Shown here piece after piece: positions 23,988 to 44,242 of a stretch of 64,000 nt of DNA. The DNA lies in the NCBI GenBank assembly GCA_000091205.1, contig AP006498.2. One strand, given 5' to 3'. Position numbers and translations under genes: made by a program. Origin of the DNA: Cyanidioschyzon merolae (taxonomy: Eukaryota). The notes beneath the pieces are model-generated. The model had not been told where the DNA came from. It saw only the letters and a list, made by a program, of their open reading frames with translations, and searched no databases. Numbering within the stretch: the stretch's first letter is position 1; each line of letters begins with the position of its first letter.

Positions 23988-24953
23988 ATGAAGAGAACAA
24001 AAGGAAGCAATCTTCTGGTATTTCACCTCAGTTGTGCTCCATTCCCCGGGTGCGTGTCATCAAATGCTTTCTCGCAGTTGATACAAGGCGCGTGTGAAAA
24101 GCGTCCATTTTCAAAAACAGCTCGAAGGGAAAAGTATGGGCATGGAAGCCGGGCATCCTCGAGGCCCGGTGTCGCAGCCTGCCATGAAAAAAAACGAGAA
24201 AAATCCTCTTCTCGTCGACCTTCGAGCGAAGAAGAAGAAGAGAGTAGTGATCGGCGACAACAGGTGTTTGCCCGACAGGACGACGACGAGACCGTACTGG
24301 CACAGAGGGCAAGCGTTCGAGGACTCCCTGCAATGCTGAGTTCAACCAGCGCCAATGCATGCAAGACGTTCGTGAACCGAGACTTGAACGGCGCCAGCCA
24401 TTTCAGAAGATATGCGGTGCTGAATTCGAGACCTGAAGAGCTGAGGCTATCCAATTTTGTGGGGAAGCCTCTCAGGCTCGAAGCATGCCAGGAGGAACTG
24501 AAACCAATAACAAGCGGCCGATCGAAAAAAAGGCCCCGAGGCGCCATTGACTGTGTATTCGAGTACGCGCTCGAGCCGACGCCCTCACTGGTACCGCGAC
24601 GCCGTTCTGCGGTCGTGCAACGATCGCACCAGTGCTATAGACGCTATTGCGGACGCTCTGGACAGGCATTCGGCGCACGACAGAACCTACGAATCGGAAA
24701 GTATATCCGAGCACAAGTACGGTTCATGAAACTTGGAAGAGCTTCGAAAGAAGGGCGCGCTGATACCAAGCGCCGACTCGCAAAACCCAGACTTCAATGT
24801 CCATGTTTGTCCAGAAAAAAAATCAGCTGGCGGGCCGGCGCGCACGCAGCTGGGCGCGGGACGCAACGGGGCCGCAGGGCGTCACGGCAGCGGGTCATTG
24901 TTTTCGTGCATCGCTTGGTGCAATTGTTGTTGGTGTTGTTGTCCTGTTCGTAA
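23988..24953 (+). CDS. Hypothetical basic/Ser-rich protein (321 aa), no recognisable domain
   Basis: Longest ORF in an otherwise unassigned 1.5-kb gap. No motif support. Confidence 0.15.
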   Translation: MKRTKGSNLLVFHLSCAPFPGCVSSNAFSQLIQGACEKRPFSKTARREKYGHGSRASSRPGVAACHEKKREKSSSRRPSSEEEEESSDRRQQVFARQDDDETVLAQRASVRGLPAMLSSTSANACKTFVNRDLNGASHFRRYAVLNSRPEELRLSNFVGKPLRLEACQEELKPITSGRSKKRPRGAIDCVFEYALEPTPSLVPRRRSAVVQRSHQCYRRYCGRSGQAFGARQNLRIGKYIRAQVRFMKLGRASKEGRADTKRRLAKPRLQCPCLSRKKISWRAGAHAAGRGTQRGRRASRQRVIVFVHRLVQLLLVLLSCS

Positions 24954-25127: not shown

Positions 25128-26123
25128 GTGGCGGCGGCGGTGGCGGCGGCGGCGGCGGTTGTGGTGGTAGTGTTTCAACAGCGCCTCGGCACGTCGTCGT
25201 TGGCAACCCAGGAGACTAGGCTCGTACCTGGGCTGTCGAGAAACGCGTCTTTCCCGGCAGCGCGGTCCAGGTCTTTCTCGGCATTGAAGGGCGCGATGGC
25301 GGCCGCGGCGGCACCGGGCTCGACGCCTCCTGGGACGCCCACAGAGTACGACCCCTTCCGCTTTCGTTCCATCGAGCCCGATCTCCGAGTGGCTATGGTT
25401 ACGGGAGCGACCGGTGTGCTCGGGCAGGCGACCGTGCGCGCGTTTCTGGACGAGGGGTTTCGGGTGGTTGTTCACGACAACTCAGTGGAGGACCTGAACG
25501 CACTTGTCGCACAGCTGGGTGCAAGTGCAACAGCCGAGGCGCTCTACCCCATCTGTTTCGATATATCGCGACCCGAAGCAGTTGCTGCGGCCATGCATCG
25601 AATCCAAACTGACTTTGGTCAGGTTTATTTCCTCGTGAATAATAACGCTGTTGTCAGCGCGACGCACGCGCTCGACACCTCGCCAGAGGATTGGCAGTAC
25701 GCCTTTGCACAGAACGTGCATAGCGCTTTCTACATGTCGCGAGAGGTTCTTCCGGCGATGCGCGCGAAGCGCTTCGGGCGTATTATCAACACATGCAGCT
25801 TGGCCGGCAAGACAGGAGGCATTACCACCGGTATTGCCTATTCGACGACCAAGGGTGCGCTCCAGACGCTGACATTCAGTCTCGCACGCGAAACCGCTCG
25901 AGATGGCGTCACTGTGAACGGTATCAGTTACGCGTACGTGCAGACGGCGACTCTGGAACGATTTCCCAAAGAGGTTGTCGATCAGCTGCTTAGCAGCATA
26001 CCCGTTGGTCGATTCATGCGACCAGAAGAATTTGCGTTCGCTGTTATGTTTCTGAGCTCCCCTATGGCTGGGTTTATCACAGGCGAAATTGTAGATTTAA
26101 ATGGCGGTCTGCTCACAGACTAG
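25128..26123 (+). CDS. Short-chain dehydrogenase/reductase (3-oxoacyl-ACP-reductase-like). The ORF as listed begins at a GTG inside a (GGC)n tract; the probable ATG is near 25296.
   Basis: MVTGATGVLGQATVRAFLDEGFRVVVHDNS is a Rossmann TGxxxGxG motif. NNAVVSATHALD ... CSLAGKTGG ... YSTTKGALQTLTFSLARE is the SDR catalytic S-Y-K region. Confidence 0.8.
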   Translation: MAAAVAAAAAVVVVVFQQRLGTSSLATQETRLVPGLSRNASFPAARSRSFSALKGAMAAAAAPGSTPPGTPTEYDPFRFRSIEPDLRVAMVTGATGVLGQATVRAFLDEGFRVVVHDNSVEDLNALVAQLGASATAEALYPICFDISRPEAVAAAMHRIQTDFGQVYFLVNNNAVVSATHALDTSPEDWQYAFAQNVHSAFYMSREVLPAMRAKRFGRIINTCSLAGKTGGITTGIAYSTTKGALQTLTFSLARETARDGVTVNGISYAYVQTATLERFPKEVVDQLLSSIPVGRFMRPEEFAFAVMFLSSPMAGFITGEIVDLNGGLLTD

Positions 26124-27282: not shown

Positions 27283-28112
27283 TGAGCAGTGAATCTGGAT
27301 TAACAGGAGAAATGTATCCAGTTCATTGCAAACACGTCGCTGGACGACTTGGTGTTGACTCCGATAGCATAGGAGTACAAAGACCCGTCTCGCCAAAGTA
27401 AGCCGAGCCACGCTCAGCAGGTGGATGACGCACACGTCTCGTCATCCGCATCCAGTGCGCAGTGCATCCGAAACAAATGCCATCAAACTCCATCCGCACA
27501 CCTGTATCGTCGTCAATCCATTCCCCCCATTTTCCCCATTTCCGGAACAGACGACTAGTTCAGAACAGAGCAGACGCCGTGCTCGAATAAGAGCGATCCC
27601 GCCGCCACGAACATGTATTCCATGTGGTCTGCACGTATGGGGTCCGGTCCCATGACATCACTGTAGACACATGTGTATAGCACTATGCTGCGTCCGTCGT
27701 GCGCTACAACTGGCCTCTGCGAGCAGAGACCAGGCATTCGAACATCGTCGCGACGAGCATTTGCGAGGCTCATGCATGGCCTCTCGGCTCAGGGCAGACA
27801 GCGGAGACACGTTTACCGCCATGATGGAGACAGTCAGAATATCTGTGTGCATGCACTTTGTGTAACCGACGCCTGAGTCGAGCAATGAAACTCCTCTCCA
27901 ACCGTTCGAGGTGGATGACGAGCAAGTCTCGGTGGCGGGCGTGAATTCCGGTTTCATTGATATGGGCGCCGTCGCCGAGCTCATGAGGGGGTAGGGGACG
28001 GAGCCAGAGACCTCCAAGGCATGCAGCTGTAGCTGCTCAGTTCTGCCAGCGCACGGCAGTATCGGGAGTCGGGCATGATGGACACGAAGAGACATCCCGG
28101 GAGCTAGAATTC
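27283..28112 (+). repeat. Direct repeat copy 1 (~830 bp, ~98-99% identical to 39546-40423)
   Basis: Overlapping ORF translations are nearly identical between the two copies (e.g. MTHTSRHPHPVRSASETNAIKLHPHTCIV ... differing at 2 residues). Sequence identity read directly. Boundaries are near gagcagtgaatc (5') and cccgggagctagaat (3'). Confidence 0.85.
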
Positions 28113-28501
28113 CAGCAAGTCTGGAGCGCGGACAATCCACCTCGGACACCGATCTTCTCGGCCGTTTGCGAACGGTAATCGTGTTCTATTGCTCGAGATT
28201 CCCGACTGTACCACATCCGGTATCCGCTGCATGCATGCGTTGCGCGACCAGGCCGCCACCATCTAAAATCCTCCATGGTGGTAGCACGAGCGTCTGCAAC
28301 GCCCATCGACATGATGCACTGCTCGGAGACGCTTGCCAGGGTGGTGCAGTTGCTGCACCGGGACGCCGCTGCGTCGTTCGACCCGCGCGCCATCCTTCAT
28401 CAACGTGATCCGGCTCTGTCGATGAAACTCGTTCAGCAATCAAGTCATCGAGCAAGCGCGGAGAATGCATCACAGTGGCGATTTCCTACGCAAGTAAATT
28501 C

Positions 28502-29167
28502 TCATACAAAAGCAGTTTCGCTTTTGGAACCGTCTTCATTGGGTCGCCCTTCCGGGCTTGCGCACTCGTCAGGGCCGTCGAGGTAACGCTTCACAAGCTG
28601 GAGCGCTTCCTCCAGTTTGATGACAACGCCCTCGACGTTGCGTGCTTGCGCATCGGAAACTTCTCTGGACTCGGAATCCTTCAAGCTTGCAATTGCTGCT
28701 TCAATGTGCTTCCCGGCATCTTGGACTCGCGCCCGCCACTCAAGCCGCTCCTTCATGCGTCTGCGCAAACGATCGAGCTGCTCCTCCGTGAAAACCTGCC
28801 TCGACTGCCAAACATCCATCAGCTTCTCAAAGCGCTCATCACCAAACAATACATCCAAGTGATTTTCCAATCCCGCAAAGAAGAGACTCGCAAGTTGCTC
28901 CAGTGTCGATACAGGGAGGCGGTGGCGCGCGTGCTGCAGCACCTCATTCGCGACATACAAAAGGTGTAAACGTCGCTCGCGATCGCTTTCGGTAAACACT
29001 TGCACCCATTCTTGAACGAGTGAGGATGCGAACGTTGGCGCCATGAATAGGATGAACTGCGCGAGGGACTGGATGGACTCCAGGTTCGGCTGGATCGTTG
29101 AGAGACGCCGTTGGAAGTTCGCGCGCGAATATCGGAGTCTTGCGCGGTGCTCACCTGATTCTGCCAT
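28502..29167 (-). CDS. CID (RPR) domain protein, Rtt103/RPRD1-like
   Basis: N-terminal LSTIQPNLESIQSLAQFILFMAPTFASSLVQEWVQVF ... RLHLLYVANEVLQHAR matches the CTD-interacting domain. The C-terminal half is coiled-coil-like. Confidence 0.7.
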   Translation of the reverse strand: MAESGEHRARLRYSRANFQRRLSTIQPNLESIQSLAQFILFMAPTFASSLVQEWVQVFTESDRERRLHLLYVANEVLQHARHRLPVSTLEQLASLFFAGLENHLDVLFGDERFEKLMDVWQSRQVFTEEQLDRLRRRMKERLEWRARVQDAGKHIEAAIASLKDSESREVSDAQARNVEGVVIKLEEALQLVKRYLDGPDECASPEGRPNEDGSKSETAFV

Positions 29168-30858
29168 TGCATCAACCTATGCCCGTTATCGGGTTTCACT
29201 TGTCTGTAGGAAGCGTTCACTCGGCGTTCTCGAAGGACACCAAGGCTCCGAAAAGGGTCGCACACAGCGGGTACGTTCCGAGGAGCACACGATCCAGGAC
29301 TAGGTTCCTCGACTTTTCGTTCCGCAGGTGTCCGAAAGAAGCCGCGCACACACTTTCGTACAGTACAGCGTCCACGTTTGGTCGAGTCTCTAAAGCGACG
29401 CGCCAGAGACCGCTGAAACTCCTGCGGCGGTGTGCTTCGCGCTCGGATACCTCACCGTCTTGCCCCTAGGTCGCGTTGCAGCAGCGACTTGGAAGAATAC
29501 CCGCAGCTTGGCGTTGAATGCAAGCGCTGGTCACAATCACTAGTTTAAGCCAAAAACACGAATAAAGGTATGGCACGACAGCACTACCAAGTACGAACTA
29601 TCCAATTTCCGTACGGCTCCAGGATCAACGCACTTGCGTACAGCGCACGTCGACTGCGCGGACGCTCTTAGCATCGCGAATCCATACAAAGCGCGAGGTC
29701 TCTCGTCTGTCTCCGATACCGGATTCCTGAGCCGAACAGGGTTTTCTTTCGATCCGCATATGCTATCATAGACCAAAGAGAAAATTATCGTTCCTCTACA
29801 AGGTCGGCACTGTTCTCGAATAGCTGTAGGCGGGTGTCTCCGTATGAAAACGGGTTCGAGCAATCTGGCGATACGCTGGAGGCATCGCAGACGAGGCACT
29901 TGTCCGAGTGAGGCGCATTCGTTTCGAGGCGGCCTTGCGAGCAGCAACTCGAAGCGCGCACGACGCGACAAGCGCAGTCGTCCGCGTACCCTATTTTCCC
30001 TGATGCATCATCATCATTATTATTATTATTATCATCATTGCGCTGATGTGAATCCCCACCATATCCATTAGCTATGCGTTCGCATTGGACAGGAGCTTCG
30101 CGAAAGCGGCCGCAAAGGCATCTGAAACCCATCCTGTACGCCTCCGGTGACTGCAAAGGCGCATTCGAGCGCCACAGCCAGCGCCCGCCGATGACGCTTC
30201 GCGCATCTACTCACCGGATCGATGATACCGTTCTTCCATGGGATACGCTGGACTGATACCGGGGTACGTGGAACTCGTCCGCATAGAAGCAGAAGCGCCG
30301 TCCCAGATTATCAAAAGCAAATATGTTTCCAGAAAGTCTGTGTGGCATCATCGACCCTGCACGAAAGCAAACAGGCAGCTCAACTGACAGCGCTGGCAGG
30401 CTGGAGCGTTTCCATGATCACGCGCCTGCGTCCAGCATCCAGGGTTCAGCGGCGGGCGCGGTCGCGTCGCCGCGGTGGCGGAAAGCCGCGCCTCGCACGC
30501 AGGCGCTGTCCATCGCGAGGAGCGACAACGCTACCGTCTATCAACGGAAACTACTGTGCTGCTGTCGAAAGACTGGGCATAGTGACTGGTAGAGGACGCG
30601 TTGACCTAACGAGTGCCTTGTGCACTGAAGACAGTGTAAGGTGTCCGCTTGGAGGAGCCGGCTACTCCGGGTTCTTCGGTACAACTGCAACTTGGCTTGG
30701 TGTTCGTTGCCTCGGCGGGCGACGCCTCGGTGTGCGTTTGCGGTTGTGTTTCGGGCGGTATCTGGCGCCATACCTGAACCTTGTAACCTAAGCTATCTGA
30801 TTCGCCGCGAGGTAACGTCGCAGAGCTGTGCAGTACCGCTGAGCGGGCCGTTGTCCGA

Positions 30859-32118
30859 GTGCATCGAATGGGCACAGTGCGTCGCAAGCCGCCGTGCTCT
30901 GTTGCCCGCGTCTACGCGCACGTGAACGAGAACCGCCCCCGCGAATACTGGGACTATGAGAACCTCGTGGTCAACTGGGGTAATCAGGATAACTATGAAG
31001 TGGTTCGAAAAGTAGGTCGGGGGAAGTACTCCGACGTGTTTGAGGGTATCAACGTCGTGAACGGCGATCGGGTCGTAATCAAAATACTCAAGCCGGTGAA
31101 AAAGAAGAAAATTAAGCGAGAAATCAAGATCTTGGAGAATCTCTGGGGCGGTCCGAACATCGTGAAACTGCTGGATCTCTGTCGCGACCCCGTTTCGAAG
31201 ACACCGTCTTTGATCTTCGAGTATATTCAGAACACTGATTTCAAACAGCTGTATCCGGCGCTAACGCTGAACGACATCCGCTACTATGTCTATGAAGTAT
31301 TGAAGGCGCTCGATTACGCGCATAGTATGGGCATTATGCATCGTGATGTCAAGCCGCACAATGTCATGATCGACCATGAACGACGCGAACTCCGACTGAT
31401 CGACTGGGGTCTAGCCGAGTTCTACCATCCCGGACGACTGTACAACGTACGCGTTGCCTCCCGGTATTTCAAAGGACCTGAGTTACTCGTCGATCTTCAA
31501 GATTATGATTATTCCTTGGACATTTGGTCGCTTGGGTGCATGCTTGCCGGCATGATCTTCCGAAAGGAGCCGTTCTTTCATGGCCATGATAACCAGGACC
31601 AGTTGGTGAAGATCGCTCGCGTGCTCGGTACCGATGACCTTTATGCCTATTTAGCAAAATACGGCATTGAACTGCGCGCTTCCTTCGCGACGTTGATTGG
31701 GCGACACAGCAGAAAACCGTGGGATCAATTTGTGGTGCCCGAAAACGCACATCTCGTCACACCAGATGGCATCGATCTGCTGGAGCACATGTTACGATAC
31801 GATCACCAAGAGCGCTTTACTGCACAGGAATGCATGGCGCATCCATTCTTTGATGCAGTGCGGCCACCGGCACTCGTCGAGACGCTGCCGACAACCGCGG
31901 AACCGAGTGACGCTGAGAAAAACGCTCACGTATCGGAATATGCGGTGCCTGAGAATGGAGCTATTTCCCCGCGATCCCTTGCAGTAGACGGACCGCAGGG
32001 AGCGCGCCGCTCGATGGGTACCAATGCCTACGAGCGGGGAGCCGCATCAGCGACTGCGTCTGCCGTGATGCGGGTGGATAATTCAACCCTGTGGACGAGC
32101 AGCTCGGGTGCGAGTTAG
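30859..32118 (+). CDS. CSNK2A: Casein kinase II catalytic subunit alpha with C-terminal extension
   Basis: [48 protein letters not shown] ... [34 protein letters not shown] ... is near-identical to the canonical CK2alpha signature sequence. Confidence 0.95.
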
Positions 32119-32651
32119 TAGCGAAGGTCGACCAAAGACGTCGCCGAGGGATACGGAGTCCAGTTCATTGGTATTATGCGCACCACAGAGACAGGTCGTG
32201 GAATCTCGGGCTCCAACTGATAAAAAACGAGTCGTGTTCAACGGTTTCTCGTTCCGGAGATCTCAACGTGTCATGCACAGGCGTGCACGATTCGCTCGGC
32301 ATGCGTTATCGTGCGGGTCACCTTTCCGTACGCTCTATGCAGCATCTTGGGCTGAGGTCGCCATAGCGTCTCGCGGCATTGACGCCTATCACTTCGTCGC
32401 ATGGAAGATCGAAGGGAATTGGCTCGAGATCATCACACAGTGTCTCCAATCATCTTGCAGCCGGCGGTCTCACGTGCGCACGGAATTTGTCCTTTCGGGG
32501 AGTTTCGCGCTCGATACCAATGATCATGGATAAACCACGGAGATGTGACGTAAGACCAAGATCTTTGTGGGGACGCGTCCAGTCGACGCTAGCCGCCAAC
32601 GGGCAGCGCACGCTGCGCTACGCGATCCACGGGTAACGATCCTCTCCCCTT

Positions 32652-33689
32652 TTACTGAAACTTGCTAGCGATCTCTAAAAACTCTTCGATATCTTCAGCG
32701 CTGCCCATGAACACGGGTACTCGCTGGTGAATATGTCGCGGTCTGACGTCCAAAATATCCTCCCTGCCGGTCGTGGCCTTGCCACCGGCGACCTCCATCA
32801 AGAACGCCATCGGCGCCGCTTCATACAGGTACCGCAACTTGCCATCCTTGCTCTTGCTGTCCGCGGGGTACATGAAAACTCCCCCGTACAGCAGCGTCCG
32901 ATGAACATCAGCCACCATGGATCCGATGTAGCGCAGAGAGCGCGGTTTCCCTTTCTCAGGATACTTCATGCGCTGCACGAACTCGCGAACAGCTGGATCC
33001 CAGTCGCGGCTATTGCCCTCATTGATCGAGTAGATGGTCCCGCGGGGTGGACAACGCATGTTCGGGTGCGTTAGAACGAATTCCCCCAGCGACGGATCCA
33101 GCGTGAACCCGTTGACAGTCTCACCTGTTGAGAAAACGAGGTTCGTCGCGGATCCGTACATGGCGTAGCCAGCAGCAACCATCGAGCGACCGCTCTGCAG
33201 CATATAGCGATTGACGTCCTCCGACGAGTTGAGTTCCTGCGGGTTATCGATGTGATAGATGCCAAAGATCGTGCCGATAGAAACGTTCGCGTCGATATTC
33301 GAAGAACCGTCCAGCGGGTCGAACGCGACGGCATAGTGGCCGCGCAAGGATGGGTCCACGAGAATCGCCAGCTCCTCCTCCTCGCTGACCAAGCACGCGC
33401 ACTTCTCCGATGCAATCAAGTTCAGTTTAAAGGTGTCGTTTGCTATCACGTCCAACTTTTTCTGGTCTTCTCCCTGAATATTCTGGTCGCCTGCGAGACC
33501 GTAGAGTTTCGCGATACCGGCGCGCCGCACACACGACTCGATGACCTTACAGGCAAGCTGCACCGCGGACAGCAGCAGCGTCAAGTCGCCCTGTGCTTCG
33601 CGGTGGCGCCGCTGCTCCACCAGCACGTAGCGGGTGAGGGTCATTGCCTCCGTTCCCTCAAGAAAAGTAGGGGCCCCCTTTGTGGTCAT
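32652..33689 (-). CDS. FBP: Fructose-1,6-bisphosphatase class 1
   Basis: The 345-aa ORF has LTRYVLVEQRRH ... GEDQKKLDVIANDTFKLNLIAS ... SEEEE ... DPLDGSSNID ... GKLRYLYEAAPMAFLMEVAGG, which are FBPase active-site and metal-binding blocks. Confidence 0.95.
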   Translation of the reverse strand: MTTKGAPTFLEGTEAMTLTRYVLVEQRRHREAQGDLTLLLSAVQLACKVIESCVRRAGIAKLYGLAGDQNIQGEDQKKLDVIANDTFKLNLIASEKCACLVSEEEELAILVDPSLRGHYAVAFDPLDGSSNIDANVSIGTIFGIYHIDNPQELNSSEDVNRYMLQSGRSMVAAGYAMYGSATNLVFSTGETVNGFTLDPSLGEFVLTHPNMRCPPRGTIYSINEGNSRDWDPAVREFVQRMKYPEKGKPRSLRYIGSMVADVHRTLLYGGVFMYPADSKSKDGKLRYLYEAAPMAFLMEVAGGKATTGREDILDVRPRHIHQRVPVFMGSAEDIEEFLEIASKFQ

Positions 33690-33872
33690 AGTTGTTGTTT
33701 AGGGTACTCGCAACAAGTTTACGCGAACCCGTCTATGACTGGTGTCGCCGGAGAAGTAGTAGCAGCACAAATAGCAGCTGCACCTCACGGGAAAGAATGG
33801 TTCAAAAGGCGTTCGCAGCGCAGCGCAGCGCAGCGCTGATCGGAATCGACGGCGGCTGCGGCGCGATCACAC

Positions 33873-34060
33873 GATGCACATCGATGCGCTTTCCGATGCA
33901 CATCGATGCGCTTTCCGATGCACATCGTTGCGCTTTCCGATGCGCTTTCCGATGCGCTTTCCGATGCGCTTTCCGATGCGCTTTCCGATGCGCTTTCCGA
34001 TGCGCTTTCCGATGCACATCGTTGCGCTTTCCGATGCACATCGTTGCGCTTTCGCAGCAG
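33873..34060. repeat. Tandem minisatellite: 22-nt unit (gatgcacatcgatgcgctttcc) x3-4 interleaved with a 12-nt subunit (gatgcgctttcc) x7
   Basis: Read directly. It lies ~180-370 bp upstream of the FBPase start codon (minus strand) and downstream of the PRC1-like stop. Confidence 0.9.
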
Positions 34061-34488
34061 CGCAAGTTGCGCATTCGAAGGATTCCAGGCGGAATTTGCG
34101 TGCGTGTCGAGCGTCGAGGTCAGATAACATGCATAACAGCAAACGGTATGCAAGTGGTGTTGCTTGACCCGCGACCAACGAGTGCTACGGAGGCCTTGAC
34201 CTGCTCCTGGGACGGTGATGTGGCGGTGGTGCTTTCTTTCGCATGCTGCATGCACGAGCGCTGGACTTGATACATGGGAACCAGCAGTCCTTAGTCAATG
34301 TTCGGGGGTAACGCAATCACATTCGTTCACGCAGCCGCTTGCATACCGTCCACCGGGAAGCGGACGACTAGGGGCGTTAGGCGCTCGCGGACAAACGCTT
34401 CAGCGAAAACGCGCATCTGGAGCCAAGACGAACGGACGCGACGCCAGAGGCAGGTTCAGCAACTAGATCACAACGCTTCCGATACGCG

Positions 34489-37400
34489 TTAGCGGATAGG
34501 CGACTCGGCACAAGGAAAGTCGGCTGAAAACTGAACAGGATAGGGCTCCCCAGACGCCGCAGGTGGCCTGGTGCTCGAATGTGTCGAGCCCGGCTGCTCC
34601 GAGAGCGAGTCTTCGGCGCAAGAATGCGCCCTCGTCGGGGCGTTCGAAGGCATCCCAGTCGTGCACTCCTGATTGTCGACGGCGGTACACTTCATTTTCG
34701 TGGTATTCGGTGTACAAGTTGACGCCGATGACGCCGATGACGCTGAGCGCACACGCTTTTTCGGCATGCAGTTCATCGTGAGATCGCTTTCTTGGAGCCG
34801 GGGCGAACCGCGGTCGCTAACACCCTTGATAGCTCGCGGGGTCTCGACCGGTCGGAACGACTGCTCGGCCGCGACATTCGCTTGCAAACTACTGTTTTCC
34901 TGGTCGGACTCAGGGTCTGAAGTTTGTACAGCTCGTTTTTTCTCTTGTGACAGACGCGAGGGTGTTTCGATATGCGACGCCCTACTCGTGGTATCAAGCG
35001 CGGGCGCGTTGTGCTCGTGCGTTTGCATTCCGGCTTCCATGAGCTGCTGCTGCTGCTGCTGCTGATGTTCCGTTCCTTGCGACTGCCTGCAAGGCGATAA
35101 CGTCGAGCCGGACACCGACGTGCCGGACGACAGACTCGGGTCCAAGAGCTTCGCCTCGGAGGCGCATCTTAACGACGGCGCGCTGCCTCCGCTGTGATGA
35201 CCATCGCTTTGGGACGAATGGAGTGACCCTATAAGCCGCGCTGAATTTCCAGTCGGGGTACTCCTGTATTCTACACCGACGAAGGACGGTGCTGCCGCAC
35301 TCGAACCGTACGAGTGCTCCGCGAGCTTTGCCCCTGCTCGCTCAGTGGGCGTGGTCTGTGCAGGGGAACGATCGAGCGTCCGTGTTGACCGCTCAGAGAC
35401 GCTTCCGCCCTGAACGCAACCGTGACTATTGGACGTACTCATTTCAGTGCCGCTGCTGGAAGACGCATTCTCGGTGAAGCAGCGGTCATTTTGGCCAGTG
35501 CTCTGGTTGGCGCACCCACCCGGAGGTCGGATTCCGGCGACTCCAGGACTCTGTGGCGAATCTGCTACCTTTGACGCAAACTGGGGCGTTCGCAAATCTC
35601 CAATCATAGGCGCTCTACAGGACATACTATAAGGTGCCGCTGAACCCTCACGAGCTATCGCATGGTGCTGGTTCGCAGGCCCCGCCGCTGAAAGCCAGGC
35701 ACACCATGCGCCCGGGACTTCGGCACTTGCAGCCGCCAGCGCAGTGGTGGTCTTCGCTTGTCCGATTACCGCGAAAGGAGTATTCGCATCGTGTTTCGAT
35801 TCCACGCGCTTGCGAACTTGGGCTGCGAGCACTTTCTTCGCACTCGTTCCATTCCATGTATTTGGTGCATTCGGCCTTGGGGTCGGGGTCGAACGAGCGC
35901 TCGTGGCGTTGCTCGGTGCAGCAAGCCGACCTGCGCTGCCGGCAGCAGAGGCCGCGTTCGCGGGGACCGTAGCAACCGGTACAAATGCTCCGCTGTTCGC
36001 GTTCGTGGGCGTTTCGCGTTGACCGCTGCGACTCACGCGCATGGCAGCCTCGGCTGCCTCTTCCTGTTGAAGGCGCTCCAAAATATCCACACCCTTATGT
36101 ATGAAACGTTTCTGGAATTCGTGCGCATAACTCTCCAGTAAACTGCGTAACACATTGTTCACTTTGGGTAGCTGACGCACCTGTTTTCGGAGCTGCTCCT
36201 CGCGGAGAAGGCCCCCTACGATGCGCTTACCGCCGCTGCGACCAAAGAGGCGCTCCGGATTCTGCATCTCTCGATCCAGCTCCATCTTCTTTTCGAGCAA
36301 TTCTTCGCGGCGCCTCAAAAGCTCGTGGATCGGACGAATACGCCTTGCAATGGACTCGAGACGCGATGTTTCCTGCTCTATGGCTTCGAGAACTTCCTCG
36401 CTCGCTTCATCGTTGCTGCAGAAAGCAAACGAGACCCGCTGCGCTGGTGCGATGTCAAGCTCATTCCACAGCGCGGTCAGGCGTTCTTTCTCCTTGGCAA
36501 TGAGAGCTCGAAGGCGCTTCTCGCGAGTCGCGCGCAATTCTTCCACATGGCTGTGCCATGCTTCCAAGCTGTGTTTGCTGAGAGTGCTGTGTTCCGCTTG
36601 GAATGCACTAAAGCGCTCCGCGGGATAACGTAGCGCCTTGTAGAGCTCAGCGGCGATATTGGATACTCGATCGAGCTCTTCGACCCGCAATTCAATTTCC
36701 CGCTCCAGATACGCTACCCGCGCGGTCAAAACATCAATGGAAACAAGAGAGGCACCCAGCGGCTCCTGCGTACCGTCAAAGGTCAGTGCAAGACGATCGA
36801 GTTCTGATTCAGTCTCTTCGGGTGACACTATGCAGAGTCTCCGAAGAAGACCTCTGATCGACACAAGTAGCGATGCAATCGTTTGCACTCGTTGCTGGCG
36901 CAGCTCTAACAGTTCCGAAATCTTCGACTCAAGCGCACGAATGCGCTGCCCATATTCGCGAATGGAAATCTTGCGAAGGGGATTGTTCAGGTCGGAGGCA
37001 ATCGTGGTAATCTGCGTAAAATTAGCCTCATGACTTGGGCTTACATTTGCCCCGAGTTCGACTGCGGACGGTACGTCGCGGGTGCGCCGACTCCCCGTGA
37101 TCACGAGTGCGTCCCGGTACTCCTCGGGCAAGTCATCAACGACTTCGCCGAGTTCATCAACCCAGAGCGTCAAAACACGTTTTTGCAGCTCACCGAGACG
37201 CTCGACAAAGAGTCGCTTCTGCGCTTCCAAAGCAGCGACTTGGCGTGAAACCTCGTCCAGACACTGTAGCAAAGTGCCCTGACGACCGGACGAGTCTCCA
37301 GAGCGACCGGATCGCTCATGCGGAGCGAGCCCAGGATTCGTGCTTGCACCAGGCAGTAGACGTTCCACAGTCGGCGCTTCACGCCGCAGAGAGGGCTCAT

Positions 37401-37830
37401 CCGGCAACGTACAACTCACGGACATGTCCGGTGCTGCAGTATGCCCCAAACCGCCGGCGCCAAAAGTCGTCGACAGCTCTATGGTATTATTGGCAGCAGA
37501 GGCGGCCCCCCATTGTCGCTCCGTCATGTCACCACCGACCGTACGCCGGCTACTGCTCAGCACATCAGCAGGCAACCATGCTGCAGGAGCGCTCTTTTGA
37601 GCAGCGGCGACCTCCGCCTGCAGCTCCAGCAGCAGTGCCTCAGCGGCGTCCAGTTCATTTTCGAGGGTATCCCGCTCATCCGCCGCACTTTCCAGCGTAT
37701 CCACGTATACACGAATCACCTGCTCGCGCAAAGCCTCCACCCGACGAACTCGTTCAGCTTCGTCGAGACCAATCTCCGCCCAAACTTCCTGTAAACGCGA
37801 TATAACATCTTGATTCAACCTGACCTCCAT
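34489..37830 (-). CDS. PRC1/MAP65/Ase1-like microtubule-bundling protein with ~700-aa low-complexity S/T/A/P/Q-rich C-terminal tail (poly-Q from a (CTG)8 tract at 35041-35064)
   Basis: The N-terminus VISRLQEVWAEIGLDEAERVRRVEALREQVIRVYVDTLE parallels the PRC1 N-terminal dimerisation helix (LREIWELIGIPEDQRLQRTEVVKKHIKELLDMMI). Long coiled-coil follows, then a disordered tail. The identity call is by memory only. Confidence 0.55.
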   Translation of the reverse strand: MEVRLNQDVISRLQEVWAEIGLDEAERVRRVEALREQVIRVYVDTLESAADERDTLENELDAAEALLLELQAEVAAAQKSAPAAWLPADVLSSSRRTVGGDMTERQWGAASAANNTIELSTTFGAGGLGHTAAPDMSVSCTLPDEPSLRREAPTVERLLPGASTNPGLAPHERSGRSGDSSGRQGTLLQCLDEVSRQVAALEAQKRLFVERLGELQKRVLTLWVDELGEVVDDLPEEYRDALVITGSRRTRDVPSAVELGANVSPSHEANFTQITTIASDLNNPLRKISIREYGQRIRALESKISELLELRQQRVQTIASLLVSIRGLLRRLCIVSPEETESELDRLALTFDGTQEPLGASLVSIDVLTARVAYLEREIELRVEELDRVSNIAAELYKALRYPAERFSAFQAEHSTLSKHSLEAWHSHVEELRATREKRLRALIAKEKERLTALWNELDIAPAQRVSFAFCSNDEASEEVLEAIEQETSRLESIARRIRPIHELLRRREELLEKKMELDREMQNPERLFGRSGGKRIVGGLLREEQLRKQVRQLPKVNNVLRSLLESYAHEFQKRFIHKGVDILERLQQEEAAEAAMRVSRSGQRETPTNANSGAFVPVATVPANAASAAGSAGRLAAPSNATSARSTPTPRPNAPNTWNGTSAKKVLAAQVRKRVESKHDANTPFAVIGQAKTTTALAAASAEVPGAWCAWLSAAGPANQHHAIAREGSAAPYSMSCRAPMIGDLRTPQFASKVADSPQSPGVAGIRPPGGCANQSTGQNDRCFTENASSSSGTEMSTSNSHGCVQGGSVSERSTRTLDRSPAQTTPTERAGAKLAEHSYGSSAAAPSFVGVEYRSTPTGNSARLIGSLHSSQSDGHHSGGSAPSLRCASEAKLLDPSLSSGTSVSGSTLSPCRQSQGTEHQQQQQQQLMEAGMQTHEHNAPALDTTSRASHIETPSRLSQEKKRAVQTSDPESDQENSSLQANVAAEQSFRPVETPRAIKGVSDRGSPRLQESDLTMNCMPKKRVRSASSASSASTCTPNTTKMKCTAVDNQECTTGMPSNAPTRAHSCAEDSLSEQPGSTHSSTRPPAASGEPYPVQFSADFPCAESPIR

Positions 37831-38139
37831 TCCTGGGGTTCCAGCCAGAGCGCTTGGTCACTTTTCACGACCGCGTGTGGGGACAGGTTCGACTCGAAGC
37901 AAACACCAGTTCCCTGTAGCGCCTTGCACGCTGTTGTCCGCTATTCGCAGAAAAGCGGCAACGCTCGCGAAGCGCAACGCAATACCGCACCGTGGCACAG
38001 CCAGACAGCAGCAGACACACCGGTAGGAGTGGCGGCACACCGGGCGTCGGGATCGCAACGGCTGGATGTGGCGAATCGGCGATTTGAATGAGGGCGGCTG
38101 TGTCGGGTACGGGCGCGCGCTGCTTGCGACGTGTCGCGC

Positions 38140-38310
38140 GATCGATTGATTCTCGATCGATGGACTGACGGATCGATGGACTGACTGACTGACTGACTGA
38201 CTGACTGACTGACTGACTGACTGATTCTCGATCGACGGACTGTCTGATCGATGGACTGTCTGATCGATGGACCGACTGACTGACTGACTGATTCTCGATC
38301 GATGGAGCGC
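38140..38310. repeat. Complex (GACT)n / tcgatcgatggactg(a/t)ctga repeat cluster
   Basis: (ctga)12 core plus flanking imperfect 20-nt repeats, ~300 bp upstream of the PRC1-like start. Confidence 0.9.
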
Positions 38311-39545
38311 ACAACGAGTCGCGAGTTGGACGCTTCTCTGCAGAGAGATACTGGCATCTGTTCGTGTTCGTGGATGCGATGAAGTCGGTGCTGTGTGGCG
38401 GAGTTGGCGTTCGTCTGGGCGCGTTGGTGCGTTTCTTTCGTTTCCGCGCATAGCGTAATGTCGTGCGGAACGGCTGAATCTGGGTATCCAGAGTATGCGA
38501 CTCGATTTTTTGACTTTTTCCCAGAGTCGATTGAAGAAACAGAGCACGTCTCTAACGATGATAGCGTCTGCAAGGCTGGCACCAACGACAGCCAGTTGCC
38601 TGCGAGGATCAGATCCTGGATGATACGCTGAGGTAAAGTTTAGTGTGATGGATTGAGTTTCCTGTACTCATACAGGATACAGATACGCGCAGTGAGCTCG
38701 AAACGAAGCGACATGGTCAGCGGCGGTGTCTGCGCCTTGGACGAGTTTATCGGCGCTCATGCACGTGAACGGCTCGTTGCATGGTTCGCTCCGCCCTCGT
38801 GCATAGCGTTGCGACCAGGTTCCGTCGAGCGCACACCGTACCCGTGTCGAAGAGGTATTCGCTGGGTCTCTGTGCAGCGAACTGGCAGAGTGATTGTGCA
38901 AGCTGTTCCAATGAAGGCTGGTCGTCTGCAGAGCGCCGCAACGAGGGCTGAAACGTTTTTCCGGTGGATATCTGTGTGAAAAAGATGATCAAATACGCAG
39001 CTTATGGAGGCGCATATTACCGAGTGCCATTCGGGTGCAGTCACGCATGTTTGGGCATGTATTGTGCACTCCAGTATCGCACCTATCTTGGACCGTTTAA
39101 GCGAGGTATTGCGGGCGGCGTCGGCTATCTTCCCAGCATACACGCGTACTGTGCAGCGCTTGCGAGGCGTAGGTCACCTGCTGACAGCGATGCACCATTT
39201 TGTGGCCAAGTACGCGTTGCTAGCCTTGCGCACAGCATACGGCGCCCGCACCGATATCGCTCACCCTAAAAACACAAGCTCCATTTGCCCGATCGCAGAA
39301 GCAACTTGACATCTCTGGGAATGGCGGCAAAAGAATGGACGCTCCCGTTGGGTACTGAGTGCCATGAGCATAGAAGTCATCTGCGATGCCGGGCGCGGAG
39401 CAAGACTCACCGTGCGCTAGCGTCTCAGGTGGACGTAGGTACAACGTCCGTTATCAATCGTAGCGTCTTGGAAGAGCAGCGTTCAAAACACTGCGCAGAG
39501 AATGCCATACAAGTCTAGCGCGGCGAAGGCGAAATCGATAGATGC

Positions 39546-40423
39546 AGAGCAGTGAATCCGGACTGCCTTTGTATGCATGCCCTTTTGTTTTCGCAGGTTT
39601 TCCTCGAAGTTTTTTCCTGAAGAAACGTATCCAGTTCATTGCAGAAACGTCGCTGGACGACTTGGTGTTGACTCCGATAGCATAGGAGTACAAAGACCCG
39701 TCTCGCCAAAGTAAGCCGAGCCACGCTCAGCAGGTGGATGACGCACACGTCTCGTCATCCGCATCCAGTGCGCAGTGCATCCGAAACAAATGCCATCAAA
39801 CTCCATCCGCACACCTGCATCGTCATCAATCCATTCCCCCCATTTTCCCCATTTCCGGAACAGACGACTAGTTCAGAACAGAGCAGACGCCGTGCTCGAA
39901 TAAGAGCGATCCCGCCGCCACAAACATGTATTCCATGTGGTCTGCACGTATGGGGTCCGGTCCCATGACATCACTGTAGACACATGTGTATAGCACTATG
40001 CTGCGTCCGTCGTGCGCTACAATTGGCCTCTGCGAGCAGAGACCAGGCATTCGAACATCGTCGCGACGAGCATTTGCGGGGCTCATGCATGGCCTCTCGG
40101 CTCAGGACAGACAGCGGAGACACGTTTACCGCCATGATGGAGACAGTCAGAATATCTGTGTGCATGCACTTTGTGTAACCGACGCCTGAGTCGAGCAATG
40201 AAACTCCTCTCCAACCGTTCGAGGTGGATGACGAGCAAGTCTCGGTGGCGGGCGTGAATTCCGGTTTCATTGATATGGGCGCCGTCGCCGAGCTCATGAG
40301 GGGGTAGGGGACGGAGCCAGAGACCTCCAAGGCATGCAGCTGTAGCTGCTCAGTTCTGCCAGCGCACGGCAGTATCGGGAGTCGGGCATGATGGACACGA
40401 AGAGACATCCCGGGAGCTAGAAT
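39546..40423 (+). repeat. Direct repeat copy 2 (partner of 27283-28112; carries a ~55-bp insertion near its 5' end)
   Basis: See copy 1. This copy ends ~65 bp before the first ORF of TnpB-like copy A. Confidence 0.85.
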
Positions 40424-40484
40424 GACGGCATCAGGACCGAACTCGACGCTTTAAGCTCCGGATCGAGCAGCGAAGGCAGACGCT

Positions 40485-41388
40485 TTGCGCGCTTCATTCG
40501 TAGTGTTCGTGAGCGTCCAAATGCATGATCCAGACCATCCTTGGGAGGAGTACATCAAAACGCGATGCGGCCTACATCGGTCTCGTCTGTACGCACACAT
40601 GAGGCGTGCATTCTCCAACTTGTTCATTGAGTCGCAAAAGCAAATGACCCGCAGGCCACTTGGTTCGGAAGCGGCCTAGTGTACTGGACGTGCTTCTGCT
40701 CGCAAAAGCTGCACTTCTGCCTCTTCGGCGAGAGCGTGCCACACGGGATATGTCCGCAGATGATCCCGTCACTTCTGTTTGCATGGCAAAGGGCATTGGA
40801 CTCGATCTTAAGTCATTGCAAAAAATCGCCTCCATTGGAGCCTGCGTCACCGTTTTGCGCGGAGGCTTCGCACAGAAATCAAAATTTCTCGACTTGTTCT
40901 ATAGCCTGGACTCTATCTGCTAATCGTTTCATCACGGGCATCATCCCGTTCTGCAAATCCTCTATCGAAGGGGAAAGCGTGCACTCGCTCATGTTACGGA
41001 AACCGTACTCGCCGAGCGAATCGCCCACAAGTCACCCGTGATCGTTATGTACAGCACCAGACACGGAAACGGAGCAGGGTATTGAGCAGAACCTTCTCTA
41101 CCCGTCAAAGAAAAGTACCAAGCTATGAAGCAAGCGTTCGCGCGCAGCAGGGGGGGCCTCTATACGGGCGCAGTGCTAGCCCTATGCGAACACCTGACAA
41201 ATGCCAAGTGTCACCGATGCCAAAGGCGTACCAGCGCTATTCTGGAAGAACATGAACATGGCAAGAGACGCGTAGCTCGCAACTGCCACCTTTACATGAA
41301 ATGTAGCGACAACGTTCAGAGGCGGCGAGCTCGGGAGTTTAAACCTGCCATCAACATCCCTCAACAAACGACGACAGAACCTGAGTAG
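40485..41388 (+). pseudogene. TnpB/Fanzor-like copy A: N-terminally truncated, degenerate, with a RuvC-I-like motif, a Cys/His finger and a mutated RuvC-III motif
   Basis: ORF 40660-40923 has AKGIGLDLKSLQKIASIG, a G-x-D RuvC-I-like motif. ORF 41125-41388 has KCHRC ... EEHEHGKRRVARNCHLYMKCSDNVQRRRAREFKPAINI. Its DNA and protein align with copy B (62.8-63.0 kb). The R-D of RuvC-III is replaced by R-E-F. Pieces are in different frames. Confidence 0.5.
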
Positions 41389-41490
41389 AAGTAGAGACTG
41401 GCGTATGTAAAACGGGAGATAAGAAAACAAAAAAATTAGCCGTCAGACTAAAAGCACGCAAAACTGGGGTTGATGATGGAGGAAGGAGAC

Positions 41491-43092
41491 CTAAGCTTCG
41501 GCGTGTGCACCTGTTTTGGAGGCCCAGCGACTTGCTCCATACGCTACTACGGGCCTTTGACGCTTGCACTCCTTCAAGGCGCTCAACTGACTGAAAAGAA
41601 TGTTGAATGTGCGCTGCTTCCCACAGTACAGGTTCATACGCTGGAAAGCCCACCGGGGCTTGGTATATTCTCTCCAGAGCGCCTCCCAATGAGCAACGCG
41701 AACTTTCATGAACTCCCGAAAAGCTCGATAGCCCGCTCCGCGGCACGTCATCTCGCTGGTCGCTTCCAGGTGATCCTTCACTCGTGCATTCCATGTCTGA
41801 ATTTTCTTCCTTGCACTCATGATGCCGGATTCTCGGTAGTATCTCGCCCTCGAGAGCTTGAAAAGACGAATGTCTTTATGAGGCAAATTACCGTCAGTAC
41901 CATCTTCCGCTCGCTTGGGTGCTGCGATGGCTATATGATTCGTGTTTCCAGGGTCTGTGCCAACGACAAAGCCGTTATCCTCCACCTCCTGCGTCACAGG
42001 ATCCTCCTCCTTCTCATCTTCATGGTTCGTCACGGGCGCAGCCGAGGGCGGAACTGGACGATCTGTCTTCAAGCGCCGATAGTGTACATACATGGTTACT
42101 CCATCGGTCTCAATCATCCCAGTGAATAACTTTTGCTTGCTCGTATTGAGACGTTTGAAATCGAAAATATTCTTCCAGTACGTCTCCCGGTTTTCGCCGG
42201 AGGATTCCTCCCTGCTAACATCGAACTCCGAACTGATCTCCTTCATGATGCACTAGAAGACCTTGGAGTCGATAGTCACAAAACGTGACTTGATGTTGCA
42301 CAACGGAACGACGTTGAAGCGCGTCCCCCATTAGGAAAGCCTTCCGTTTCTCCGAATCTTCGTTTTTTGTCCCACTAAGCTTCATCTCTGCCTTGCCTTC
42401 GAGTTCTCGATCCAAAAACACGAAATACCTCAATATGAGGAGGTAGTATCTTTCCTTATCTTTTTCAACTCTGATACCTTTTCTGCTGGATTCGCCAGCT
42501 CCAGTACCGTACGATGCTCTTGCATGACCGCACGGATTACAGAAGCTTCATTCGTGCTCTCGTTTGACGCCTTCTTGTCTACAAATTGGATCTCATCTTC
42601 ACGCTTGTGATCTTTCGTGATGCCATTGATTATCGCCCATATTCCTTTGCGAGAGGCACCCGGGTAGAGCGCAAACACGGCGCCTATCATGAAACGTTCG
42701 AGGTTCACGATCATATGTTTCTTCAGGTTCGTGAGGTACTTCATGGCCCCGTAGGTAAACATACCCCAGTATCCCATGTATCGAGTGCCGTTGAAGTGGT
42801 ATTCGGAGTGATTTTCGTGGAAGGCATGCACTAGCTCATTTTCCCTCCGCGCTTCCCCTTTACTAAGCATCAGGTGCCGAAGAATGGTCTTGTCGAAAAA
42901 ATCGCCCGGAACCTCGACTGTTTCCATGTCCGTCACGTCGAGATACATCTCCCTCGACATATGCATTAGCCCTGACGAAGCCTTTATAATACTCATGGAG
43001 TACGACTTAACACGGTTTCTAGTTGCCTCCCGTAACTTCTCCACCCACGCATTCTTGATATGTTTAAGAAGACAGGCTTTCACCACCGTCAC
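41491..43092 (-). pseudogene. TnpB/Fanzor-like copy C: N-terminal ~530 aa in three shifted frames, ending just before the expected RuvC-II/zinc-finger region, convergent with copy A
   Basis: It contains ...DNGFVVGTDPGNTNHIAIAAP (RuvC-I-like G-x-D-x-G ... N) followed by a basic helical region (KLSRARYYRESGIMSARKK ... LYCGKQRTFNILFSQL ... RPVVAYGASRW). That layout is typical of TnpB between RuvC-I and RuvC-II. The N-terminal part (ALYPGASRKGIWAIINGITKD) is homologous to copy B at 61.5 kb. GC is lower than in host genes. Confidence 0.5.
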
Positions 43093-44242
43093 GTAGGACT
43101 CTTGTTTTTCGTGCAGCTTCTGACGTGGGCTCTCCCTCTTCTGCGTCTTTGTCTTTTCCTGTTACTCTCCGCCGGGCACTGTTTTTCGTTTTTTTTCTGG
43201 CAGCCGGCGACACCTGCCTTCCAGGATCCTCCACTTGCTTTTCCAGAAATTTCCTTTTTTCGGAAAAGAACGCGCTTTGAACGCTTCTGTTATTAACTGC
43301 GAAAAATCAACCGAATACACTCATTAGAGCGTTGAAACACGACTGAGATGAAGTAATATATTTCGCTACGATTCCAATGCAAATACACGTTTTACGTTAA
43401 AACAACAAGTCAACGAATGGTCAGGATTGCGTTTCCCTTCAACGGCGAGATGCGCGTCGTACCTCATGCCTGCCGGTAATGGAGGTGCGCATCTCGACCG
43501 CACTATATGCAGCAAAGAACAGAGACTAGCTACTGACTAGCAATGAGATGACAATTTCATTCCCACTCTACAGTAAACGTTAAAAGGGCAAATGTTGCCA
43601 GATCGTCGAAAGCTTACCTTCCAGGCGAAAGGTCCAGCGAGCCGGACGAGTCTCCGGGGGTTCGTGCTTCATGGCTTCCCCTTCGCCACCCCAGTGCCAG
43701 GTGCTTTAGTGATATCTGACCAACTCATCCCCGAAGCGGTTTATTCCGGCATTAAGGGTGCTCAGGCAGCGTCTGGGCGTCGCCCGGCTTGCAGTTATCT
43801 CCTAGTATATCGCTTCGCGCTGCCGCAAACCGTATGTCTATCTGTACAAATTGCAGGCTCCCAGAAAGACAATTAGCCCCGATTCCGTATCACGTGTAGT
43901 ATTCCCCGAGCCGACGCCCCCGGTAGTGTGGTAAATATGTTCTGTTTCCGTGATACATCTGAACCATCGGTAGAGGGGCTATTCCGGGTGCTCACGGCCG
44001 GCAAGCGGCGCATGAGAGAACGAATGAAACGACCAGAACGTTCGAAAGCATGTATAAGTAATGGAACTTGGAGGTAGGGTGCAGCATGGCGGACGCTTCC
44101 CCGATTGCCAATTCCCATCTCGCAATCCGGGATCCATAGTCCGTGGAAACTTTTTGGCATCGAAATAGGAATCCGGCACGGGTCCAGAGGAGGCGCTTCC
44201 GCGGCACCAGCGCAGCGCAGCTGTCCCTTGGCAGGTACAAGA

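Follow-up and report, generated by a model that had tools for sequence, protein, structure and literature searches.

Fanzor1 (TnpB-like) elements of Cyanidioschyzon merolae are represented by the CMe-1A family, published with a consensus of 3169 bp (PMC3627910, supplement 2), and Bao & Jurka gave the motif D-X(125,275)-[TS][TS]-X-X-[C4 zinc finger]-X(5,50)-RD (PMC3627910). A shorter element, TE-N2_CMe, has 635 bp, occurs in ~70 copies and is equal to the CMe-1A 5' end (PMC3627910). The sequence of strain 10D is that of a finished genome; a WSV486-like interspersed repeat with 253 copies was described in it in 2007, and no LTR retrotransposons have been reported in C. merolae (PMC1955436).

The DNA analysed here (the window, 64,000 nucleotides of C. 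merolae 10D chromosome 16) contains an 803-bp unit in two copies, which, like the CMe-1 Fanzor1 elements, has no TIRs and which retains, in collinear order, remnants of CMe-1 protein residues ~310-480, with the RuvC-I Asp motif. The parent relic of the unit extends further, over the WEEY and zinc-finger regions and the R(D/E)xxxAINI motif. In contrast to CMe-1A DNA (~80% identity to the 3169-bp consensus), the unit shows no detectable nucleotide similarity to the consensus (Smith-Waterman z=1.2) and only ~25% amino-acid identity, and the relic is therefore placed in an older subfamily that has diverged further. It is, moreover, a pseudogene, and what is repeated is an internal 803-bp piece of it, not an element. 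As with TE-N2_CMe, a short Fanzor-derived sequence is found apart from the full element, but the unit is non-terminal in its parent, is present in two copies (versus ~70), and has no similarity to CMe-1A positions 1-905.

Two further systems are comparable. With NAHR low-copy repeats the pair has in common two ~99% identical direct copies, unique flanks, a bracketed gene block, a hint of conversion and one contig with the predicted junction; unlike segmental duplications, the unit lies below the usual 1-kb threshold, and recombination between the copies is only a candidate. Templated break-repair insertions (SDSA or template switching) are likewise of sub-kilobase size, with a nearby ectopic donor, arbitrary end points in the donor, and neither TSD nor termini; in the filled site, the sequence AGAA was noted at the left and the right end of the unit.

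The repeat pair and the genes between its copies

The repeats and the neighboring genes are located in the window as follows.

25128-26123, plus strand: SDR (short-chain dehydrogenase) gene, left neighbour of copy 1
27308-28110, plus strand: repeat copy 1 (self-BLAST, alignment), an isolated fragment and the putative derived copy
28111-39620: block between the copies, 11,510 bp, with four genes and two simple-repeat arrays
28502-29167, minus strand: CID gene (Pfam)
30859-32118, plus strand: CK2alpha-type kinase gene (Pfam, Pkinase)
32652-33689, minus strand: FBPase gene (Pfam)
33860-34075 and 38128-38307: simple-repeat arrays within the block
34489-37830, minus strand: MAP65/PRC1-like gene (Pfam, MAP65/ASE1)
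39621-40423, plus strand: repeat copy 2 (self-BLAST, alignment), internal part of the plus-strand Fanzor1 relic and the putative source copy

The two copies, delimited by self-BLAST of the window and by a MAFFT alignment with flanks, are direct repeats of 803 bp each, with 98.9% identity (9 mismatches, no gaps), sharp edges and a start-to-start spacing of 12,313 bp. The identity is uniform along the full length. No other pair in the window is at once long, dispersed and nearly identical, the remaining self-BLAST matches being local tandem arrays, in agreement with the original prediction that no other paralogous sequence is as similar (~98-99%). The repeat itself was correctly recognised there, but the proposed limits (27283-28112 and 39546-40423) imply lengths of 830 and 878 bp, and the starts have to be moved to 27308 and 39621. 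With two copies in the window, high identity and unrelated flanks, the pair has the character of a low-copy repeat or segmental duplication.

The four genes expected between the repeats (CID, CK2alpha, FBPase and PRC1-like) were recovered by Pfam, and their proteins match the C. merolae 10D proteins BAM81768-81771 exactly. Copy 1 lies alone in the spacer where the 3' ends of the convergent SDR (plus) and CID (minus) genes face each other, and its flanks are homologous neither to those of copy 2 nor to any of the Fanzor relics (z = -0.5 to 1.8).

The unit starts and ends with AG..AT, not TG..CA. No TIRs were found at its ends (9/40 ungapped matches, best local score 8), no TSD was found within +/-6 bp, and a search for inverted repeats gave none. 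A TIR transposon or MITE was rejected, the unit lacking both TIR and TSD.

A decayed Fanzor1 element around copy 2

The Fanzor copies in the window that are related to the repeat, and the motifs readable in the relic around copy 2, are listed below.

15831-16816, minus strand: third relic, same subfamily (tblastn, CMe-1 protein residues 557-689, E=2e-8)
39541-41522, plus strand: decayed Fanzor1 (TnpB-like) pseudogene, called copy A in the original prediction (tblastn with the CMe-1 protein)
39931-39990, plus strand: FHVVCTYGVRSHDITVDTCV motif, inside repeat copy 2
40125-40172, plus strand: FTAMMETVRISVCMHF motif, inside repeat copy 2
40263-40286, plus strand: RuvC-I-like GFIDMGAV, inside repeat copy 2
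40364-40405, plus strand: ARQYRESGMMDTKR motif, inside repeat copy 2
40536-40625, plus strand: HPWEEYIK...SNLF, in the relic, outside the repeat
41209-41229, plus strand: CHRCQRR, in the relic, outside the repeat
41332-41358, plus strand: REFKPAINI, in the relic, outside the repeat
41510-44162, minus strand: CMe-1A Fanzor1 copy (BLASTN of the consensus, positions 1-2641, 83% identity)
54506-56120, minus strand: second relic of the old subfamily, the "B/D" locus (tblastn, CMe-1 protein residues 425-679, E=1e-13 to 1e-16)

The plus-strand relic retains collinear remnants of CMe-1 protein residues ~310-731, interrupted by several stops and at least two frameshifts (tblastn); on the left it begins at 39541 or further upstream, and the span given is a minimum. 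The 803-bp repeat by itself covers residues 310-480, including the RuvC-I motif, with at least three stops and at least two frameshifts. It is thus not an intact Fanzor1 ORF, nor does it match an RNA family (Rfam and tRNA searches of the unit), but it does contain decayed Fanzor coding sequence, contrary to the original prediction that no ORF is recognisable in it. Pfam gave no significant match for the local ORFs or for the CMe-1 consensus protein. The motif of Bao & Jurka is degraded in the relic, with RE in place of RD and a C4 finger readable only in part, as expected for a pseudogene.

A stitched translation of repeat positions 311-803, with frames hand-chosen by the analyst, matches CMe-1 protein residues 310-480 with E=1e-9 (BLASTP). 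Plain tblastn of the 803 bp alone against the same protein is not significant (22.3 bits, versus a shuffle maximum of 22.7), so the relic assignment of the unit rests on collinearity, on the stitched translation and on nucleotide homology to other relics. For the last, z is 27-32 for the repeat against the two other relics and 29-43 for the flanks of copy 2 against other relics. In the third relic, homology extends over repeat positions ~407-803 (z=26.6) and the right flank of copy 2 (z=28.9, both by Smith-Waterman), and 40028-40423 could be aligned with its positions 16816-16414. At the B/D locus, 55469-55093 aligns with 40047-40423. This diverged form of the unit (~60-65% nucleotide identity), present at 55469-55093 and 56120-55995, overturns the earlier statement that the unit does not reappear there.

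The homology crosses both edges of copy 2. On the right, 40316-40737 matches 55200-54778 with 65% identity; on the left, 39541-39663 matches 56120-55995, with 50/83 matches upstream of the edge (P=2e-10). Judged by this Fanzor-family homology, which passes unbroken through both repeat edges, copy 2 is internal to copy A, being its upstream part and not a mere neighbour. The annotation is corrected accordingly: copy A reaches ~900 bp further upstream than first read. The first ORF previously assigned to copy A (40485-40679) begins 62 bp from the repeat, close to the ~65 bp given before. Whether the relic family has its 5' end at the left repeat edge was also considered, the first alignment having begun at 39629; this was rejected, as the collinear homology to the 55-kb relic reaches at least 80 bp upstream.

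The minus-strand CMe-1A copy (44162->41510) is 5'-complete and 3'-truncated, and joins the plus-strand relic tail-to-tail. It has 70% identity to the CMe-1 protein over residues 18-579 (tblastn), and is the best-preserved TnpB-like gene at the locus, overlooked in the original prediction, on the strand opposite copy A. Nesting of the plus-strand relic into this copy was rejected, because the missing part of the consensus (2642-3169) was not found upstream of the relic. In the repeat, BLASTN of the CMe-1A consensus gave nothing credible; one match of 58% identity (E=1e-5) overlaps the last 70 bp.

Altogether, at least eight Fanzor fragments are present within the 64 kb. The 253-copy interspersed repeat goes back to a TnpB-like family of which the plus-strand relic is a member, and the parent Fanzor family of the relic is already described.

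Copy number and occurrence in wild populations and relatives

Across all public assemblies reached, the repeat was found in only two genomic contexts, that of copy 1 (context 1) or that of copy 2 (context 2); the two-copy figure for the 16.5-Mb genome comes from indirect surveys of these assemblies. A metagenome k-mer scan of limited power found 2 contigs. Among 5.8 billion proteins, the longest ORF of the repeat (145 aa) falls in a single cluster of 19 members; among the 15 members listed, the lengths are 163 aa (context 1) or 209/218 aa (context 2). An exact look-up of the 72-aa ORF of copy 1 returned no record.

L018, L025 and L029, all wild assemblies, each run through copy 1 and both its flanks, and the wild contig L034 does so for copy 2. 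Mis-assembly of the second copy, named at the outset as the finding that would overturn the duplication, is excluded by these independent metagenome/SRA assemblies. Both copies are present in wild assemblies ~98-99% identical to 10D, and thus predate the split of 10D from wild populations that are ~1% diverged.

The gene order of the block is kept in Cyanidiococcus and in a MAG lineage, where the repeat is absent; the syntenic spacers (1-2.4 kb) contain no Fanzor signal and no relics. FBPase led to two kinds of relatives, those with ~99% identity, in which both copies are present, and those with only 65-80% identity in coding DNA, whose spacers could not be aligned. No informative relative in between was found, nor was an empty copy-1 site.

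Origin of copy 1 and exchange between the copies

Nine sites separate the two copies within 10D, and 9-15 separate orthologues of different strains. At site 217 both 10D copies have C, where all wild copies, whichever their context, have T. In addition, the two contexts have several variants in common in the wild assemblies, which are short-read assemblies of a collapsed repeat where mis-phasing is possible. These patterns hint at gene conversion between the copies after the duplication.

The 803-bp unit is, with good probability, an internal segment of a dead Fanzor1 relic that was copied once, without a transposase, into the SDR-CID spacer. The relic ORF would have decayed long before the duplication, and the segment would then have been placed, in the same orientation, 12.3 kb upstream of its source, most likely by templated synthesis in double-strand-break repair (SDSA or template switching). 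Since the empty-site allele was not found, we infer the direction and the mechanism of the copying. A break directed by a Fanzor guide was considered for the copy 1 site and set aside: the window has a single CMe-1A copy with a complete 3' end, and no 8-mer of its 3' flank recurs in the reconstructed empty site, a test that tells nothing beyond this. After the duplication the copies may have exchanged sequence by gene conversion. The unit presumably has no function of its own, and its sole likely consequence would be to offer homology for recombination by which the 12.3-kb unit could be deleted, excised or duplicated in tandem. The earlier proposal of a recent duplication or gene conversion is supported, and of the three readings offered segmental duplication is the right one, but the associated truncation of the copy A 5' end does not hold, the unit being the upstream part of copy A.

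An unlikely alternative history is that two independent old relic fragments of one Fanzor subfamily, 12 kb apart and by chance equally oriented, were homogenised by recent gene conversion. The density of Fanzor relics in the window would allow it, the variants shared across contexts and site 217 suggest that conversion occurs, and part of the mismatches is grouped at the left edge (positions 6, 24 and 26). Against this, the flanks of copy 1 retain no family homology (z<=1.8, compared with z=29-43 for the flanks of copy 2), and, given the sharp edges and the even identity over 803 bp, an old fragment would need to have exactly the extent of the conversion tract. Transposition of a non-autonomous mobile element, or of a member of a dispersed family, to both sites is very improbable. 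Partial Fanzor-derived elements do exist in the genome, as TE-N2_CMe shows (PMC3627910), but repeat positions 1-400 have no similarity to CMe-1A positions 1-905 (z=0.5), a region which covers the TE-N2_CMe-equivalent first 635 bp, so identity with TE-N2_CMe was rejected. Copy 2 has both its edges within a larger relic, and the two contexts, the single protein cluster and the lack of termini, TIRs and TSD give no support to the dispersed repeat family first envisaged.

Slighter still is the chance that the repeats are functional, as a duplicated regulatory element, an ncRNA gene or a small protein gene (e.g. the 145/163-aa antisense ORF). Both copies are kept in all wild populations sampled, and interspersed elements are transcribed according to Nozaki et al. 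(PMC1955436); on the other side, Rfam and tRNA searches of the unit gave nothing, the ORF lacks homologues away from the locus among the 5.8 billion proteins and varies in length by context, the sequence is that of a frameshifted, stop-bearing transposon pseudogene, and relatives that keep the gene order do not have the repeat. Direct orientation and an LTR-like size recall retroelement LTRs, or an assembly artefact, but hardly any weight can be given to this: the interior holds four housekeeping genes in ancestral synteny, the ends are not TG..CA and carry no TSD, LTR retrotransposons are not reported for the species and the 10D genome is finished (PMC1955436), and each copy is spanned with its own flanks in independent assemblies. 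An LTR pair was rejected on these grounds.

If the favoured reading, a single copying of a segment of the dead relic, is correct, the locus would be a clean, datable case in which a dead TnpB-like element was copied without a transposase, perhaps with concerted evolution of the copies. On its own it is of small weight, a short duplicated stretch of transposon debris in a genome that is finished and well studied; it also flags a candidate for repeat-mediated duplication or circularisation of the four-gene block.

C. merolae is a haploid alga with efficient homologous recombination. The original prediction that the repeats are a substrate for unequal recombination is plausible and unproven, and one metagenome contig bears on it. 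Ga0078972_1014395 (12,564 bp) has overlapping ends and contains the block and one hybrid repeat, joining the left flank of copy 2 to the right flank of copy 1, which is the predicted recombinant junction. It may show recombination between the repeats, or it may be a cycle in the assembly graph. It is doubtful that the repeats recombine actively in nature and that this contig stems from a wild hot-spring population in which the block is truly duplicated in tandem or carried on an extrachromosomal circle; if true, a dead Fanzor fragment would drive copy-number variation of CID, CK2alpha, FBPase and MAP65, genes central to metabolism and mitosis, in a eukaryotic genome that is among the most streamlined.

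The repeat pair and the genes it brackets

Self-BLAST of the window reveals a single long dispersed repeat, present as two directly oriented copies, each 803 bp long. They differ by 9 mismatches without any gap (98.9% identity), and their starts lie 12,313 bp apart.

27308-28110, plus strand: copy 1, in the spacer between the short-chain dehydrogenase (SDR) and CID genes (context 1)
28111-39620: block with the CID, CK2-type kinase (CK2alpha), FBPase and MAP65/PRC1-like genes (Pfam)
39621-40423, plus strand: copy 2, in the MAP65/Fanzor context (context 2)
39541-41522 at least, plus strand: copy A, a decayed Fanzor1 pseudogene

The pair is real. Its identity had been estimated correctly in the original prediction, while the coordinates and the lengths of 830 and 878 bp needed slight adjustment. 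In an alignment including 200-bp flanks, identity starts and ends abruptly at both repeat edges. The window belongs to chromosome 16 of the finished C. merolae 10D genome, its proteins matching BAM81765-81773 exactly.

Directly upstream of the CK2alpha gene lies a 189-aa ATG ORF (30222-30791, plus strand) with no Pfam match, which has been gene-called in many metagenome assemblies. No BAM number is free for it between CID (BAM81768) and FBPase (BAM81770), thus it appears to be absent from the 10D annotation. The block also holds a tandem array of 22-bp period between FBPase and MAP65 (33860-34075) and a GACT/GATC-rich microsatellite of 8-bp period upstream of MAP65 (38128-38307); both differ in length between 10D and the wild contigs, and many metagenome contigs break there.

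The repeat as an internal part of copy A

A Fanzor1 (TnpB-like) element of this alga, CMe-1A, was described by Bao & Jurka together with a 635-bp derivative, TE-N2_CMe (PMC3627910). The CMe-1A consensus measures 3169 bp and its protein 734 aa; the element occurs in ~150 copies, lacks TIRs and has an unknown TSD. Between ~39931 and ~41522 the plus strand aligns weakly but collinearly with the CMe-1 protein (CMe-1p); this stretch corresponds to copy A and starts inside copy 2 of the repeat. Of the original readings, segmental duplication is the right one, corrected in that the unit is a part of copy A and not its neighbor. Four recognisable CMe-1p remnants are found within the repeat, in both copies.

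Remnant 1: FHVVCTYGVRSHDITVDTCV, against CMe-1p FNVVPLCNIKSHFVTIDSRV
Remnant 2: FTAMMETVRISVCMHF, against CMe-1p FTGMIETDGVAMCVHY
Remnant 3: GFIDMGAV, at the position of the RuvC-I Asp motif
Remnant 4: ARQYRESGMMDTKR, against CMe-1p ARYYRESGIMNARK

Downstream of the repeat the relic shows the WEEY region, a CxxC motif and REFKPAINI. A stitched translation of the repeat, bridging two frameshifts and three stops in frames chosen by the analyst, matches CMe-1p residues 310-480 with E=1e-9; the 803 bp alone give no significant match to CMe-1p in plain tblastn, and at the DNA level they resemble neither CMe-1A nor the region equivalent to TE-N2_CMe.

Homology to other relics identifies the repeat more strongly than the protein match. 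Compared with two minus-strand relics (56120->54506 and 16816->15831), the repeat scores z=27-32 and the right flank of copy 2 z=29-43. A BLASTN match between 40316-40737 and 55200-54778 runs through the right edge without a break, and the left edge is crossed by a collinear alignment of 39541-39663 with 56120-55995, in which 50/83 positions outside the repeat match (P=2e-10). Since this homology crosses both edges, the unit lies inside the old element at both ends.

Origin, age and possible exchange of the two copies

The flanks of copy 1 resemble neither those of copy 2 nor the relics (z<=1.8). Copy 1 also lacks TIRs and TG..CA ends and shows no TSD within +/-6 bp, which together with the flanks points to copy 2 as the native copy and copy 1 as a secondary, isolated one. 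AGAA occurs at both unit ends (AGAAA/T at the start, TAGAAT at the end). The repeat matches no Rfam family and no tRNA. Transposition by the element itself is unlikely, because the end points are arbitrary positions in a dead element, with no termini or TSD. The best-supported route to copy 1 would be ectopic, non-transposase copying, e.g. break repair by templated synthesis, the donor lying 12 kb away. In the main rival reading, an old relic fragment coextensive with the unit was homogenised by conversion; this is disfavoured because the copy 1 flanks retain no residual homology. The duplication is small and of an ordinary kind, a copy of transposon debris.

Copy number was gauged by proxies (metagenome 24-mer, ORF and neighbour-gene look-ups in public assemblies, and protein clusters). 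A 24-mer from the unit matched only 2 metagenome contigs, and look-ups by exact ORF and neighbouring genes gave ~20 contigs (JGI, ENA and Logan assemblies), each with either the SDR/CID or the MAP65/Fanzor context. The longest ORF of the unit (145 aa, antisense) matches just one cluster in a search of 5.8 billion proteins. The cluster members listed fall into three lengths, 163 aa for context 1 and either 209 or 218 aa for context 2. The wild sequences, ~98-99% identical to 10D, carry both copies (copy 1 spanned by assembly contigs L018, L025 and L029, copy 2 by L034). The gene order ADA2-COQ9-MAP65-FBPase-CK2-CID-SDR is conserved in two more distant relatives, Cyanidiococcus yangmingshanensis and a MAG lineage, whose spacers are short and contain no repeat and no Fanzor signal. 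By this distribution, both the duplication and the relics belong specifically to the C. merolae lineage, the duplication being older than the split of 10D from the wild populations.

Among eight full-length repeat copies, the 10D paralogues differ at 9 sites, mostly 10D-specific singletons, and orthologues between strains at 9-15. At site 217 both 10D copies have C and every wild copy, in either context, has T; several variants (positions 84, 389 and 527) are common to both contexts. This is consistent with a young duplication and subsequent gene conversion between the copies, but mis-phasing of the collapsed repeat in short-read assemblies could give the same pattern.

One 'circular' metagenome contig, Ga0078972_1014395 (L019; JGI 3300005573; 12,564 bp with a 121-bp terminal overlap), consists of the block (28111-39620) and one hybrid repeat, joined to the left flank of copy 2 and the right flank of copy 1, along which variants change from copy-2-like to copy-1-like. 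This junction is the one expected of a circle or tandem duplication from recombination between the repeats, and equally of a de Bruijn assembler cycle from R-block-R. Normal linear junctions occur in at least 4 assemblies, and we consider a real circle or tandem duplication improbable.

Other Fanzor-family sequences in the window

Family copies were located with the published CMe-1A consensus as query, which found many further fragments scattered across the window.

44162->41510, minus strand: CMe-1A copy, 83% identity, 5'-complete and 3'-truncated
2529-2872, 4919-5631, 8280-8660: Fanzor-family relics
12295-12748, 15831-16816, 22782-23980: Fanzor-family relics
24570-24758, 54506-56120, 62565-63121: Fanzor-family relics

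The minus-strand CMe-1A copy ends at consensus ~2641, exactly where the plus-strand relic has its 3' end (41436-41522), so that the two lie tail-to-tail; its missing 3' 528 bp were not found nearby. From window position 43794 onward, L034 (JGI 3300050379 contig Ga0506617_00416) departs from 10D in its positions 1-2510, which beyond the CMe-1A 5' region are a mosaic built from further fragments of the Fanzor family. Either L034 has a structural variant here, or different TE copies were joined into a chimera during assembly.

Relics are unusually dense here, with at least 8-10 fragments within the 64-kb window compared with ~1 per 65 kb on average in the genome, based on the 253 copies of a 3.2-kb WSV486-like interspersed element reported by Nozaki et al. 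(PMC1955436), probably the CMe-1A-type Fanzor1 element. Several are 5'-only or 3'-only fragments. Two plus-strand fragments (24018-24529 and 59252-59784) share one internal-deletion structure, with CMe-1A consensus ~790-969 joined to ~2833-3082, which suggests a short, non-autonomous deletion-derivative subfamily; the former overlaps a 321-aa ATG ORF (23988-24953). A 261-aa ORF (11064-11849, plus strand) with a weak, sub-threshold RVT_1 reverse-transcriptase match is probably among the few non-LTR retroelement remnants of this genome.
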